The notes under the pieces were generated by a model. That model searched no databases, was not told the origin of the DNA, and saw only the letters and a list, made by a program, of their open reading frames with translations. A stretch of DNA of 64,000 nt from Leucoraja erinacea (lineage: Eukaryota). Position numbers and translations under genes: made by a program. Location of the stretch: contig NC_073394.1 of assembly GCF_028641065.1 (NCBI RefSeq), forward strand, positions 11,656,001 through 11,720,000, read 5' to 3'. This document shows, piece by piece, positions 5,750 to 61,386 of the stretch (positions are counted from its first letter, which is position 1; every line of letters begins with the position of its first letter).

Positions 5750-6910
5750 TTGTGTTCCAGGGAGGCCATCCCAGAAGGCACGTAAGTGAGGATGCTCTTC
5801 ATTGACTATAGCTCTGCATTCAATACGGTCATCCTCACCAAGCTCACCACCAAATTCCACCAGCTAGGCCTCAGCTCGCCGATATGTGATTGGATCCTGA
5901 ACTTTCTGACAGAGCGACCGTAGGCAGTGAGACTGGGCCCTCACCTGTCCTCCACTATCACCCCGAGCACTGGCACACCACAGGGCTGTGTACTAAGCCC
6001 CATGCTCCACTCCCTCTTCACTCAAGACTGTGTTCCTGCATTCGACACCAACACCATCGTGAAGTTTGCAGATGACACAACAGTGATTGGGCTGATCACC
6101 AACGGTGATGAAACAAAATACAGAGCGGAGGTGCAGAACCTGGCGGACTGGTGCACACGTAACAACTTGTCACTAAACACCTCCAAGACCAAGGAGCTGA
6201 TTATTGACTTCAGGAGGTCCCATAATGGAGAATACGCCCCAATCTCCATTTACAGGGAAAGTGTGGAGAGAGTGTCCAGCTTTAAGTTTCTGGGCACTCA
6301 CATTTCAGAGGACCTCACATGGTCCACCAACACCGCTGCGCTGGTCAAGAAGGCACAGCAACGACTGTTCTTCCTGAGGACATTAAAAAAGACTGGTCTG
6401 CCCCAACAGCTGCTGACAACGTTCTACTGCTGCACCGCAGAGGGCATATTAACGTATGGCATCTCTGTGTGGTATCTCAGCTGCACGGAGGCGGAGAGAA
6501 GAGCTCTTCAGCGCGTCGTCCACAGAGCGCAGAGGATTATTGGGACACAGCTACCAGCCTTGGAGGGCATCTACCACACACGGTGCCTCAGGAAGGCCGT
6601 CAGCATCCATAAAGACTCCTCACACCCTTGTAACGGACTGTTCAAACTACTTCCCTCCGGCAGACGTTACAAGGCCTTCTACGCCCGAACCTCCAGACTC
6701 AGAAACAGCTTTATTCCCAGAGCTATAGCGGCTCTGAACCGGCCCTGCTGAGTGCCCCCCATCCCCCCTGGACTGTCTCCCTCGGATGGTCACGTCACAC
6801 AGCTTATTTATTTATTTTACTTTTCTTTTACATCGGTTGGAAGCTGCATACTAAATCTCGTTGCACTAATGTGCAATGACAATAAAATATATTATTATTA
6901 TTATTATTAA
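5750..6910 (+). mobile_element. Rex1/Babar-clade LINE, 5'-truncated; RT C-terminal ORF 5927-6751 with (TAT)n tail
   Basis: Motifs [54 protein letters not shown]; AATAAA and (TAT)n at ~6881-6910. Confidence 0.92.
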
Positions 6911-9590: not shown

Positions 9591-10849
9591 TTTAATGCTG
9601 TTTATCAACATGAGGACTAAACGTTATGCAAATGAAAGTCAAATAAGCCATTATGAGACTGTAAAACAAGAATAAAACATCAACCAAACCTTAGGCTTAC
9701 CAAAATAAACTGTTTGGAACATCATTAAGAGGCAAGAGGGCACTGGTGAGCTTACTAATCACAAAGGGACTGGCAGGCCAAGGAAGACCTCCACAGCTGA
9801 TGACAAACACCTGTCCGACAGATCATAAAGATTCTTCAGGAGTCAGGTATGGATTTGTCAATCACCACTGTCCACAGAATACTTAATAAACAGAAATACA
9901 GAGGCTACATTGCAAGATGCAAACCACTGATCGCAAAAAAAGATGGCTAGGTTACAGCTTATCAAGAAGTACTTAAAAGAGCAACCACAGTTCTGGTAAA
10001 AGGTCTTGTGGACAGATGAGACGAAGATTAACTTATATATAGAGTGATGGCAAGAACAATGTATGGAGGAGAGAAGGAACTGCCCAAGATCCAAAGCATA
10101 CCACCTCATCTGTGAAACACGGTGGTGGGGGTGTTATGACCTGGGCATGTATGGCTGCTGATGGTACTGGCTCACTTATCTTCATTGATGATACAACTGC
10201 TGATGGTACTAGCATAATGAATTCTGAAGTGTATAGACACATCTTATCTGCTCAAGTTCAAACAAATGCCTCAAAGCTCATTGGCCGGCGGTTCATTCTA
10301 CAGCAAGACAATGATCCCAAACATAGTGCTAAAGCAACAAAGGAGTTTTTCAAGGTTAAAAAATGGTCAATTCTTGAGTGGCCAAGTCAATCACCTGATC
10401 TGAACCCAATTGAGCATGCCTTTTATAGGCTGAAGAGAAAACTGAAGTGGACTAGCCCACAAAACAAGCATAAGCTAAAGATGGCTGCAAGGCCTGGCAG
10501 AGCATCACCAGAGAAGACCAGCAACAGGCGATGTCCATGAATCGCAGAATTCAAGCAGTCATTGCATGCAAAGGATATGCAACAAAATACTAAACATGAC
10601 TACTTACATTTACATGACATTGCTGTGTATCAAACATTATGTGCCCTGAAGTTGGGGGACTATGTATAAACACTGTTGTAATTTGTACATGGTGAAACTA
10701 AAATGTATAAAAATGGCCTTTATTAAAATCTGACAATGTGCACTTTAACTACATGTGATTTTTTTTTCTATTACAAATCTCATATTGTGGAGTACAGAGG
10801 CAAATAAATAAATGATGGGTCTTTGTCCCAAACATTACGGAGGGCACTG
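9591..10849 (+). mobile_element. Second Tc1-like transposon (different family), 5'-deleted, frameshifted DD34E transposase
   Basis: WTDETKI, KHGGGGVMTWACMAA, QQDNDPKH, WPSQSPDLNPIEH; terminus ...GGAGGGCACTG|TA at 10849-10851; inner DR at ~10631. Confidence 0.9.
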
Positions 10850-38356: not shown

Positions 38357-39568
38357 GAGAGCCAGTGGATGTAGTGTACCTGGACTTTCAGAAAGCATTT
38401 GATAAGGTCCCACATAGGGGATTAGTGGGGTAAAATTAGTGCACATGGTATTGGGGGTAGAGTGCTGACATGGATAGAAAATTGGTTGGCAGACAGGAAA
38501 CAAAGAGTAGGGATTAACGGGTCCCCTTCAGAATGGAAGGCAGTGACTAGTGGGGTACCGCAAAGCTCGGTGCTGCGACCGCAGCTATTTACAATATACA
38601 TCAATGAATTGGATGAAGGGATTCAAAGTAACATTAGCAAATTTGCAGGTGAGACAAAGCTGGGTGGCAGTGTGAACTGTGAGGAGGATGCTTTGAGAAT
38701 GCAGGGTGACTTGGACAGGTTGGGGGAGTGGGCAGATGCATGGCAGATGCAGTTAATGCGGATAAATGTGAGATTATCCACTTTGGTAGCAAAAACAGGA
38801 AGGCAGATTACTATCTAAATGGCGTCAGTTGGGAAAAGGGGAAGTACAACGGGATTTGGGGGTCATTGTTCATCAGTCTACGAAAGTAGGCATGCAGGTA
38901 CAGTAGGCAGTGAAGAAAGCGGATGGCATGTTGGCATTTATAACAAGAAGAGTCGAATATAAGAGCTAAGTGGTCCTTCTGTAGTTGTACAGAGCCCTAG
39001 TGTGACCACACCTGGAATATTGTGTGCAGTTTTGGTCCCCTGATTTGAGGAAGGACATTCTTGCTATTGAGGGAGTGCAGTGTAGGTTTACAAGGTTAAT
39101 TCCCAGGATGGCAGGGCTGTCATGTGCTGAGAGAATGGAGCGACTGGGCTTGTACACTCTGTAGTTTAGAAGGATGAGAGAGGATCTCATTGAAACATAT
39201 AAGATTGTTAAGGGCTTGGACACGCTAGAGGCAGGAACCATGTTCCCGATGTTAGGAGAGCCCAGAACCAGGGGCCACAGTTTAAGAATAAGGAGTAAGC
39301 CATTTAGAATGGAGATGAGGAAACATTTTTTCTCACAGGGAGTTGCGAGTCTGTGGAATTCTCTGCCTCGGAGGGCGGTGGAGGCAGGTTCTCTGGATGC
39401 TTTCAAGAGAGAGCTAGATAGGGCTCTTAAAAATAGCAGAGTCAGGGGATATGGGGAGAAGGCAGGAACGGGGTACTGATTGGGGATGGTCAGCCATGAT
39501 CACATTAAATGGCGGTGCTGGCTCGAAGGGCCGAATGGCCTACTCCTGCACCTATTGTCTATTGTCTA
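38357..39568 (+). mobile_element. CR1/HER1 LINE, 5'-truncated RT (frameshifted), nested in an older antisense CR1 copy (37820-38356, 39569-39685)
   Basis: DVVYLDFQKAFDKVPH, WIENWLADRKQRVGING, SGVPQ.SVL.P.LF.IYIN, SKFA..TKL; (CTATTGT)n tail. Confidence 0.92.
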
Positions 39569-47988: not shown

Positions 47989-48080
47989 ATGGGCTCGCTC
48001 GGAATTCGCTCCCAATCTCAGGGGTTGATCGTTCTCTGCACCCTCTGTACCGCTTTGCTATCGGAGAGTCGGCCAATAAG
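47989..48080 (+). CDS. PTH: Parathyroid hormone family gene A, coding exon 1 of 2 (gene exon 2): signal and pro peptide MGSLGIRSQSQGLIVLCTLCTALLSESRPI(R)
   Basis: Acceptor tttttatttacAG ends at 47983, ATG follows 5 nt later at 47989 (same spacing as mammalian PTH exon 2), hydrophobic core LIVLCTLCTALL, donor AG|GTGAT at 48081. Phase-2 intron joins in frame to the 49752 exon to give PI-R-R-SVSE. Confidence 0.9.
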
Positions 48081-49751: not shown

Positions 49752-50082
49752 GAGGTCGGTGAGTGAGATGCAACTGATGCACGATATGGGGAGGCATCTG
49801 TACGATAGTAAGAGGCAAGAGCTGATTAAAGATGTGGTAAGAGATGTCCACACAGCCAGCGAGAAGCATATCACCCCTTACACCGAGTCTCTGAGCCCTA
49901 AACACCCTCGCTCGTGCAAGCTCTCACCCGCGGTGAGAAGGCAACAGAGCAGGGCAAAGAGCAGGAGGCCGAGGAACAGCGAGAAAGAGGGAATCAAGAG
50001 CGTGAGTGCTGACGACTTCTCGGACATGGGAACACCGCAAGATCTCGACAGTCTTCCAAAGACTCCTGACGATATTGCCTGA
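49752..50082 (+). CDS. PTH: Parathyroid hormone family gene A, coding exon 2 of 2 (gene exon 3): dibasic RR plus 108-aa mature peptide SVSEMQLMHDMGRHLYDSKRQELIKDVVRDVHTA...PDDIA
   Basis: Polypyrimidine acceptor cttgtttttcctccAG ends at 49751. The N-terminus SVSEMQLMH..G..L....R...........VH matches the PTH(1-34) signature. TGA stop ends at 50082. Confidence 0.93.
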
Positions 50083-56739: not shown

Positions 56740-56983
56740 AAAAGTCAATGTCAAGGGTCATTGTTGTAAATCTACATTGTGAAAGGACTGATGTCATCGC
56801 TTCACTTCTAGTTCAGAAACTCGGAGCAATTGGGAATTACTTCCCTCTGCTCCGTCCCATATTCAGGGACTTTGCGTCTTGCCTCTTGGGAAGACATCAC
56901 TCTGACATCAGCTCGAACAAAAAGAATGTTGATGCATGGGTTCCAAACCTCTTATATAAGGGAGCTGTTTTCACATCAAGATG
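56740..56983 (+). promoter_or_regulatory. Gene B promoter: TATA box, CRE-like TGACATCA at about -80, second inverted copy, nuclear-receptor half-sites
   Basis: TATATAAG 56953-56960, TGACATCA 56903-56910, TGATGTCA 56789-56796, AAGTCA-ATGTCA-A-GGGTCA ending at 56760. Confidence 0.65.
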
Positions 56984-57081
56984 CACCAACACAATTGCCA
57001 GCAGTGGGCAAATCGAAAAGTAGCTGCAGGAGCTCTTCCGAAGTTGGACTTGAAGCCTGCGAAACGAATTTTGAGGAATCG
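56983..57081 (+). other. Gene B non-coding exon 1 (5' UTR); TSS approximate
   Basis: Downstream of TATATAAG (56953-56960) and ends at perfect donor G|GTAAGT (57082-57087). Intron 1 is ~3 kb, to 60084. Confidence 0.72.
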
Positions 57082-57204
57082 GTAAGTGACTGTACTTATG
57101 TGGTGGAAAGTTGGGCGTTTGAGATCACTGTCACTGATTGATGAAAGAGCACCAAAGGTGTCGCTGGAAGCTGACATTTTATCCAGTGCATGCTTTGCGA
57201 TAGA

Positions 57205-58770: not shown

Positions 58771-60087
58771 AAGTTAAAAGTATTTGCCATCACGTTTGGC
58801 ACGGACATCGTGGGCTGAAGGGACAGTTCCTGTGCTTAACTGTTCTATGCTCTACGCTACATGAAAAGAAACTATTAATATAACAAGTTGCTGCAATTTG
58901 GAAGGTGAAGCCTGAAAGGGTAAAATAAAGCAAATTCAGCCAAGGTTTATTGAGGGAAGGACCCAAAGTGCTGGAGTAACTCAGCAGATCAGGCAGCTTC
59001 TCTTAAGAACATGGATAAGTGACATTTTGGGCCGGGACCCTTCTTCAGACTGTCTAGCGGATGAATACTTGAATGGGGTTTTCAGGGATTCAAGAGTGAA
59101 GAATGTTTAATTGTCATCGGCATTGTAACTGGGACAATTAAATTCTTATTTGCTACGGCTTTACAGGCCCCTTAATGCAATAGCACAACAGATAAATATA
59201 CATTATTCAATAACACAATCAATTATCAGCGATACTAGGTAACTTGACCATAACAGTACAAACCGATGTAGTGCAACCTAACAAAAGTCCACAGTAGCTC
59301 GTTGCAGAGGTAGGGCTATGGTTAGGGTTGTGCAGGGTGGTTCAACAGTCTGACGGTTGATGTGAAGATACTGTTCTTATACCTGGAGGTCAAGGGTTTC
59401 AGGCCCCTCTACTTCTTCCGGATGGTAGCAGTGAGACGAAAGCGCGGCCAGGGTGGTGTGGGTCATTGATAATGTTTGAGGTGGCACTTCCTGTAGATCC
59501 CTTCGACGGTGGGGAGGTCAGATCCTATAATAGACTGTGCAATGTCCACCACTTTCTGCAGCCTCCTTCATTTCTCGGCATTTGAGTGACTAGGTTAGGC
59601 AATGATACAACCATTAGAATAAAAGGACGTACCTTTAGAAAGGAGATGAGGAGGAATTTCTTTAGTCAGAGGGTGATGAATTTGTGGAATTCATTACCAC
59701 AGGCGGCTGTGGAGGCCAAGTCATTGGGTATTTTTAAAGTGGAGATTGACAGGTTATTGATTAGCAAAGGTGTCAAAGGTTACAGGGAGCAGGCAAGAGA
59801 ATGTAGTTGAGGGGGAAAAATAGATCAGCCATGAAGGAATAGCAGAGTAGACTCGATGGGCCGAATGGCTTAATTCTGCTCCAATGACATGAACATATAA
59901 ACGGTATGTTCTCCATTAAACACCTGTAGAAGCTTAATGGAGTATCCAGCAACATGCTGAAATTGAGACAAACTGGATAGGTCTAAGAGAGAGCTGGCAT
60001 GGGCTTGATGGGCTGAAAGTCGGTAATAATTGTATGATCTGTAACCTGTCACTAAATGGTAATTCTTTGCTTTGTTAATTGCAGAGA

Positions 60088-60176
60088 ATGGTTTCCTTAA
60101 ACCTGGCACAAGTTGGAATTGTCGTCATCTTTTGCAGCATGTCGTGGCTGCTACCCTGTGAGGGCAATCCCAGAGG
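60088..60176 (+). CDS. Parathyroid hormone family gene B (PTH/PTHrP/PTH4-like paralog), coding exon 1 of 2: signal and pro peptide MVSLNLAQVGIVVIFCSMSWLLPCEGNPR(G)
   Basis: Acceptor tttgttaattgcAG ends at 60084, ATG at 60088, hydrophobic core VGIVVIFCSMSWLL, C-E-G signal-cleavage motif, donor GG|GTAAT at 60177. Phase-2 intron of 81 bp. Confidence 0.9.
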
Positions 60177-60257
60177 GTAATTCACCAGATATACAAGTAT
60201 ATTACAAGGATATTAGAACGGTCAGAGCTTGTATAATTAACCATCTTCTCTCTGCAG

Positions 60258-60564
60258 GAGGAGAACGGTGAGCGAACATCAGGAGATGCATGACAGGGGC
60301 CGCTTTCTGCAAGACTGGAAGAGGATGCAGTGGCTTGAGAAGATCATGGAGAGTTTGCACACGGCTGTTGAAGTCCTTCCTAATGACGCAGCTGCAGAAA
60401 ATCTACCGGGACAGAGGGAACCATCTGCACTTCCCCATACCCCCGGATATAGGGAAGGAATCGCCAGTAGCCACCAAGACCTCGAACTAGGAGGTGCTCT
60501 TGCTGGTGACCTCGAGGAAGCTGAGAAGGCAGCGAGCGTGGATCTTTCTGATCTTCAGAGTTGA
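60258..60564 (+). CDS. Parathyroid hormone family gene B, coding exon 2 of 2: RR plus 99-aa mature peptide TVSEHQEMHDRGRFLQDWKRMQWLEKIMESLHTA...DLQS
   Basis: Acceptor cttctctctgcAG ends at 60257. Splicing gives the furin site R-G-R-R before TVSEHQxMHDRG. PTH/PTHrP signature residues V2 S3 E4 Q6 M8 H9 G12 R20 W23 L24 H32 are present. Confidence 0.93.
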
Positions 60565-60565
60565 C

Positions 60566-60690
60566 CATAGTGTCATACAGCACAGAAACAGGCTCTTCGG
60601 CTTAACTTCCATTCAGACCAAGATGCCCCATCCAAGCGTTCCATTTGCCGGCGTTTGACCCATACCCTTCTAAACCTTTCCTATCTAACT
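60566..60690 (-). mobile_element. Antisense CR1 3'-tail fragment starting immediately after the gene B stop codon
   Basis: catagtgtcatacagcacagaaacaggctcttcgg is the reverse complement of the CR1 tail seen elsewhere in the window. Confidence 0.7.
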
Positions 60691-60824
60691 AACATTCAGT
60701 ACAATCAATTTTGAGGATCTACGAGTTGTATAGTGATCCTGACACTGTCTGATCCCAAATAATACCGACTGTTCCCTCTTATATACCAACTTATTTAATG
60801 GGGAACTTAAGTCACACATTTCCA

Positions 60825-61260: not shown

Positions 61261-61386
61261 AATAAATACTAGCTGAGATATATTTATTGTTATTTATATA
61301 ATTTATTTTTGAGATTCAATTTCTCATTTGTTTTTAAATGTGTGTATTGTTCACAAGTCCTGATGCTATCAAAAAATAAAAATAAA
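61261..61386 (+). terminator. Candidate poly(A) signals and AU-rich 3' UTR segment of gene B
   Basis: AATAAA at 61261 and ~61375-61386; several ATTTA motifs at 61281-61310. Confidence 0.4.

Follow-up and report, generated by a model that had tools for sequence, protein, structure and literature searches.

The analysed window, a stretch of 64 000 nucleotides of the Leucoraja erinacea genome, carries a three-exon, spliced gene of the parathyroid hormone (PTH) family, denoted B hereafter, in which glutamate occupies a position of the mature hormone, position 7, that is otherwise hydrophobic in the family. From the comparison of sequences, we favor, with moderate confidence, the reading of B as an agonist of PTH1R/PTH3R whose signaling would be weakened or biased by the invariant Glu7. 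The gene itself is already in the databases and has been cloned in elephant shark.

Translation of window positions 60265–60366 (plus strand) yields TVSEHQEMHDRGRFLQDWKRMQWLEKIMESLHTA, the mature B(1–34), with GAG as codon 7, and all the residues that the first-pass annotation listed for this peptide are present. The Pfam family Parathyroid (PF01279) matches this segment with 43.9 bits (E 4e-11), and the PF01279 scores, 43.9 and 50.2 bits, both exceed the curated cut-off of 22. The product has the traits of the PTH family, namely a signal peptide (assigned by eye and homology), a dibasic site, and Val2, Gln6, His9, Arg20 and Leu24, the conserved residues listed in a section of PMC3009671; the nearest relatives of the peptide among the solved structures are abaloparatide and PTHrP. 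The family trait that B lacks is the hydrophobic position 7, a conserved feature although not a formal criterion of PF01279, which is replaced by Glu in all orthologues.

The exon structure is apparent from contigs of sequencing runs, 7 of the 24 listed runs having been examined and six of these, with five species labels, containing gene B; the seventh, the raw RNA run X24, contributed 0 reads in about 5% of the run. The DNA-type contigs X16 and X20 retain the 60177–60257 intron, whereas the contig of X6 (species label of the best holder, X1; another sample, taken to be RNA by guess, none of the listed holders being recorded as RNA) jumps across it with GT..AG ends. The loose ends of two X6 contigs that run out of exon 2 map, with 1 mismatch, to positions 57051–57080, 3 kb upstream, and the RefSeq model P0005 shares the donor of this first exon (GT at 57082). 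The annotated gene B protein has 184 amino acids, and the exon-3 product is identical (100%) to XP_055505288.1, ‘parathyroid hormone 4' of L. erinacea. Model P0005 includes 53 extra N-terminal residues that start from an ATG located 5' of the TATA-like box (window 56926–57081), and a Narcine model aligns to this region only through a frame change; these 53 residues probably stem from erroneous annotation of a conserved non-coding stretch. A high-copy repeat begins right after the stop codon of B (60566–60700), and fragments of reverse transcriptase and DDE transposase are found at window positions 5924–6748, 10043–10537 and 38426–38815.

Table 1. Features of genes A and B in the window
Feature	Position	Strand	Remarks
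Gene A signal-peptide exon	47989..48080	+	Tandem PTH paralogue
Gene A mature-peptide exon	49752..50082	+	Mature start 49756; Met5, Leu7, Leu23, Ile24
Gene B TATA-like box	56953..56959	+	Pattern match; putative function
Gene B first exon, 3' end	57051..57081	+	Likely non-coding; loose ends of X6 contigs; donor GT 57082
Gene B exon 2	60085..60176	+	ATG 60088; encodes signal peptide plus short pro-segment; homology to 6 named orthologues
Gene B 81-nt intron	60177..60257	+	GT-AG; directly 5' of dibasic site; absent from X6 contig
Gene B exon 3, coding part	60258..60564	+	RR site, 99-aa mature peptide, stop at 60564
Gene B RR cleavage site	60259-60264	+	Cleavage predicted from family
Mature B(1–34)	60265..60366	+	0 amino-acid changes, six runs
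Glu7 codon GAG	60283..60285	+	Invariant, 7/7 named orthologues
Arg11 codon	60295..60297	+	One helical turn from Glu7; candidate salt-bridge partner, putative pairing
First AATAAA 3' of B stop	61261..61266	+	Pattern match; putative

The conservation of Glu7 in other elasmobranchs, which the first-pass annotation proposed to check, holds and extends to the elephant shark: the residue is found in all seven named orthologues, those from Leucoraja, Amblyraja, Narcine, Mobula, two Scyliorhinus species and Callorhinchus (two skates, an electric ray, a devil ray, two catsharks and the elephant shark). The motif EHQEMHDR at positions 4–11 is common to all seven, and 18 of the 34 positions of the mature 1–34 peptide are invariant, among them Glu7, Arg11, Phe14 and Gln16 and the activation residues Val2, Glu4, Gln6, Met8 and His9; the face for the receptor extracellular domain (ECD), with Arg20, Trp23 and Leu24, is intact. 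In a search for representatives of the family (102 proteins, of which four could not be parsed, leaving 98), position 7 is Leu in 78, Phe in 12, Tyr in one, Ile in one and Glu in six; since B was the source of the profile, this is a census of family members near B rather than of the whole family. The six rows with Glu7 are all from the B group, including the unnamed P0078, which resembles an alternative model for the gene of the elephant shark, and the rule that position 7 is hydrophobic in PTH and PTHrP is borne out by Leu, Phe, Ile or Tyr in 92 of the 92 other representatives.

Codon 7 is intact in X6 (1/1 exon-3 differences placed), X5 (9/9) and X16 (21/21), and no difference is listed at this codon in X3, X11 and X20, for which 1/4, 3/19 and 3/23 of the differences, respectively, are not shown. 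Among the distinct listed changes, codons 1–34 contain two silent and no replacement changes, compared with three silent and 15 replacement changes in codons 35–99. The absence of all 15 replacements from codons 1–34 yields a binomial p of 0.002 and a Fisher p of 0.053, with the caveat that the species are related and not independent; the pattern in codons 1–34 is purifying. A sequencing error or private variant is ruled out by the spliced X6 contig, which carries Glu7 in another sample, and by the proteins of seven named species, and pseudogene decay is at odds with the purifying pattern, so that an artefactual or decaying Glu7 can be dismissed as next to impossible.

The genomic context of B is that of PTH. 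Genes A and B are located 10.5 kb apart on C18, in the order Sterile domain (11.59–11.60 Mb), A (11.706), B (11.716), BTB_3 (11.765–11.771) and PAS_11 (11.797); the names of the neighbors come from domains and recall, and the BTB genes on C18 and C24 are those that we take to be BTBD10 and KCTD20. This order (FAR–A–B–BTBD10-like–PAS) agrees with the PTH neighborhood, with its linkage to BTBD10, ARNTL and FAR1; BTBD10 and ARNTL flank PTH according to excerpts of PMC3009671, and the neighborhood also appears in supplement 3 of PMC3483286. The other members of the family are elsewhere in the genome: C19 carries PTHrP, C24 carries a PTH4-like gene and C1559 carries TIP39. Because of this synteny and the separate PTH4-like locus, B is probably a paralogue in tandem at the PTH locus rather than PTH4, and RefSeq has probably misnamed it ‘PTH4'; it is the synteny rather than the tree that carries the claim. 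The fourth-paralogon (human chr6-like) position expected of PTH4/PTH-L is not that of B, and it is on synteny (a distance of 10.5 kb from A; a PTH4-like gene present on C24), and not just on the tree, that the assignment of B to PTH4 is rejected.

The trees were built from 40 and 29 rows hand-picked from about 120, with unnamed rows labeled by motif. In the tree of the signal, pro and 1–36 region, B, A and the PTH of bony vertebrates are on one side of a 98/98 branch, with A sister to bony PTH (95/86) and B sister to A plus bony PTH. The AU tests on 65 columns reject neither a clade of A and B (p 0.19) nor one of B and PTH4 (p 0.22), and the tree on 34 columns is mostly unresolved. Identity of B with PTHrP (PTH3) is rejected, given that PTHrP is on C19 and has a basic mid-region, whereas the tail of B is acidic; a Pfam match on C30 stays below the cut-off with 21.7 bits and does not seem to belong to the family.

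Several of these relatives have peculiarities of their own. In gene A (P0003, which bears the name parathyroid hormone 1a; mature segment 49756–49857), Trp23 and Leu24 are replaced by Leu23 and Ile24 in 6/6 elasmobranch proteins, and Leu23 is rare, with 3/98 representatives; as far as the sequences go, the altered receptor-binding face may belong to gene A, reciprocally to B. The Scyliorhinus torazame model P0012 is a chimera that joins the A mature exon to the B signal exon, so that the A–B tandem appears to exist in the catshark too. The PTH4-like gene on C24 (L007 1420–1617, minus strand; G000:C24:23.29 Mb), located beside the BTBD10 paralogue, has a long branch, Arg12 where 86/98 representatives have Gly, and no HTA end; its product has no match among the protein searches, and no SRSF3 motif is found in the 8 stretches (80 kb) around it. 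TIP39 on C1559 is represented by two matches (L048, L049) 29 kb apart on opposite strands, either a duplication or an assembly artefact, and the frog precursors P0023 and P0024 contain two PTH-like 1–34 peptides in tandem in one protein.

The best non-elasmobranch match of B is ADJ21810.1, ‘parathyroid hormone 1' of Callorhinchus milii (UniProt D8X183; P0022). The mature peptide of this protein is identical to B in 23 of 34 positions, compared with 16 of 34 for A, and in 13 of the first 14, Glu7 included, and the protein groups with B in both trees (support 88/82 and 91/86). Elephant-shark Pth1(1–34) reportedly raised cAMP in rat UMR106 cells (work attributed to Liu, 2010), and the same work reportedly describes Pth2 as an ancient gene that bony vertebrates have lost. 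Given this reported activity and the database label Pth1, agonism of B is likely. Because the description of Pth2 as ancient and lost also suits B in the tree, the two elephant-shark labels might have been swapped, which we consider improbable.

The first-pass annotation proposed that B might be the orthologue of the elephant-shark Pth2 without cAMP activity, an identification that the accession names do not support. In PMC3483286, Pth2 is ADJ21811, whereas the orthologue of B is ADJ21810, so that the inactive Pth2 is probably not B. Excerpts of PMC4354418 describe Pth2 as grouping with PTH-L, having an intron 5' of KR and failing to raise cAMP. The PTH4-like gene on C24, in which the intron likewise precedes KR, fits this description and is a candidate orthologue of Pth2, but KR follows the intron in the shark orthologues of B as well, and this feature therefore does not discriminate.

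The combination of PTHrP-type His5 with PTH-type Trp23, pointed out as a mixture in B, is indeed there but is not unusual. It is the most frequent pairing, with 53 of the 98 family representatives, and occurs also in the PTHrP and PTH4-like genes of the same genome, which rules out a special chimera. Chicken, zebrafish and fugu PTH-L carry both residues as well (PMC3009671, part of the supplement), and for chicken PTH-L, the abstract of PMC3483286 gives an EC50 of 7.7 nM at PTH1R, whereas its discussion speaks of low activity. Selectivity for PTH2R, which the first-pass annotation ascribed to residues 5 and 23, reflects in human, according to a section of PMC8364112, the difference between Tyr318 (5.39) of PTH2R and Ile363 of PTH1R. 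All three skate PTH receptors (L024, L029, L036) have Tyr at 5.39, found in human only in PTH2R, and therefore, the human rule is not directly transferable to B.

More can be learned from the receptor pocket that accommodates position 7. In human PTH1R, Leu7 is surrounded by Phe184, Leu187, Tyr191, Met441 and Met445, and in D-Leu7 PTH(1–34), cAMP signaling is kept but arrestin recruitment and internalization are lost (both from excerpts of PMC13244458); bias is thus tunable at position 7 with agonism preserved. The Leucoraja genome contains three PTH-receptor TM7 exons, with 62–100% identity, the next matches being at 48% or lower. The TM1 signature Phe-x-x-Leu-x-x-x-Tyr is kept in all three receptor genes, and the TM7 pocket pair is Met+Met on C934 and C27, and Met+Leu on C7. 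Judging from these residues, the Leu7 pocket is hydrophobic in all three Leucoraja receptors, and receptor co-evolution via a basic residue in the pocket is rejected, none being present at the five positions compared in these receptors. With Glu7 conserved and the hydrophobic pocket retained, altered activation is plausible, in line with the initial suggestion that B binds PTH receptors well but activates them poorly; antagonism, which was also put forward, is disfavored.

The agonism that we favor would unfold as follows. After removal of the signal peptide and cleavage at the dibasic site, Arg20, Trp23, Leu24 and Met28 would bind the receptor extracellular domain, and Val2, Glu4, Gln6, Met8 and His9 would still trigger Gs. 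Glu7 would face the pocket formed by Phe1.36, Leu1.39, Tyr1.43, Met7.39 and Met7.43, with hydrophobic packing lost and the charge probably neutralized by Arg11 (i, i+4); the expected outcome is a lower potency, a shorter residence time or less arrestin coupling than in the paralogues with Leu7 or Phe7. Position 11 is Arg or Lys in 77/98 representatives, so that the invariance of Arg11 in B is no proof of its pairing with Glu7.

An ordinary full agonist, in which Glu7 has no cost on the receptors of sharks and rays and is a mere mark of the lineage, is the alternative that survives best, even if it appears unlikely. The orthologue is labeled Pth1 and reported as active, the remaining activation residues are invariant, and TIP39, a potent agonist of PTH2R, has Ala at the equivalent position (PMC8364112, in part). 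Nevertheless, a charged position 7 occurs in none of the 92 other representatives, the Leu7 pocket is unchanged, and one would not expect a neutral change to remain fixed from chimaera to skates while the neighboring positions vary. Less probable is that the main target of B is PTH2R, a RAMP-bound PTH receptor or another class B1 receptor. Such a target could account for the invariance of Glu7, Phe14 and Gln16 in B and for the lack of a counter-charge at the five pocket positions, and chicken PTH-L sets a precedent for receptor selectivity in the family (parts of PMC3483286), but only the three PTH-receptor TM7 exons were found, and PTH2R already has its ligand, TIP39, in this genome.

A natural antagonist, which would bind PTH receptors without activating them, is more doubtful still. 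The intact ECD face (Arg20, Trp23, Leu24) and the charge at a buried position of the activation domain are compatible with such a role. However, the inactive peptide cited in its favor is Pth2 (ADJ21811), not the orthologue of B; the strict conservation of Val2, Glu4, Gln6, Met8 and His9 would be needless for an antagonist; the known antagonists are devoid of residues 1–6; and the reported cAMP activity of Pth1(1–34), by label the elephant-shark orthologue of B, counts against it.

A more ambitious scenario, to be taken as tentative and, on balance, unlikely, can be envisaged. B could be a fifth, ancient PTH-family hormone that emerged by tandem duplication prior to the split of cartilaginous and bony fishes and disappeared from bony vertebrates, with Glu7 making it a natural G-protein-biased or short-acting agonist, comparable with synthetic position-7 analogues, and with A having diverged reciprocally by keeping Leu7 and losing Trp23 and Leu24.

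In PTH pharmacology, position 7 is held to be obligatorily hydrophobic and is a known switch of signaling bias. A Glu7 peptide kept across all sampled cartilaginous fishes is a natural test of this rule, and PTH1R analogues might be modeled on the B peptide. The map of the family is corrected as well: the genome has PTH, PTHrP, PTH4-like and TIP39 genes plus B, which RefSeq likely mislabels as ‘PTH4', and the ‘Pth1' of the elephant shark, which serves as the shark PTH, seems to be the B paralogue, not the gene closest to the PTH of bony vertebrates. By title and abstract opening, with thin coverage of subscription journals, the literature searched contains nothing on Glu7 or on sharks and rays having a second gene at the PTH locus, and a term search in the accessible part of PMC5640766 finds no mention of shark.

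Compared with the known members of the family, B resembles bony-vertebrate PTH and gene A in locus order, the three exons and the short pro-segment, but bony PTH has Met, Ile or Val5 and Leu7 where B has His5 and Glu7, and the sister of bony PTH is gene A, unlike B (95/86). With PTH4/PTH-L, B shares His5, the MHD motif, Arg11, Trp23 and the HTA end, whereas PTH4/PTH-L have Leu or Phe7 and a location on another chromosome. The elephant-shark Pth1 (ADJ21810) has a signal and pro-segment similar to those of B, but differs in having Ser12 and a KR site, compared with Gly12 and RR in B, and in the poorly conserved C-terminal tail. The elephant-shark Pth2, as described in excerpts of PMC4354418, has, like B, a PTH-like gene structure with an intron before the dibasic site but, by the names of the records, is set apart under an accession (ADJ21811) other than that of the orthologue of B. 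Finally, D-Leu7 PTH(1–34), a synthetic biased agonist, is changed at the very position that is changed in B, although there the change is one of stereochemistry and backbone in a synthetic peptide, whereas in B, it is a natural substitution of charge.
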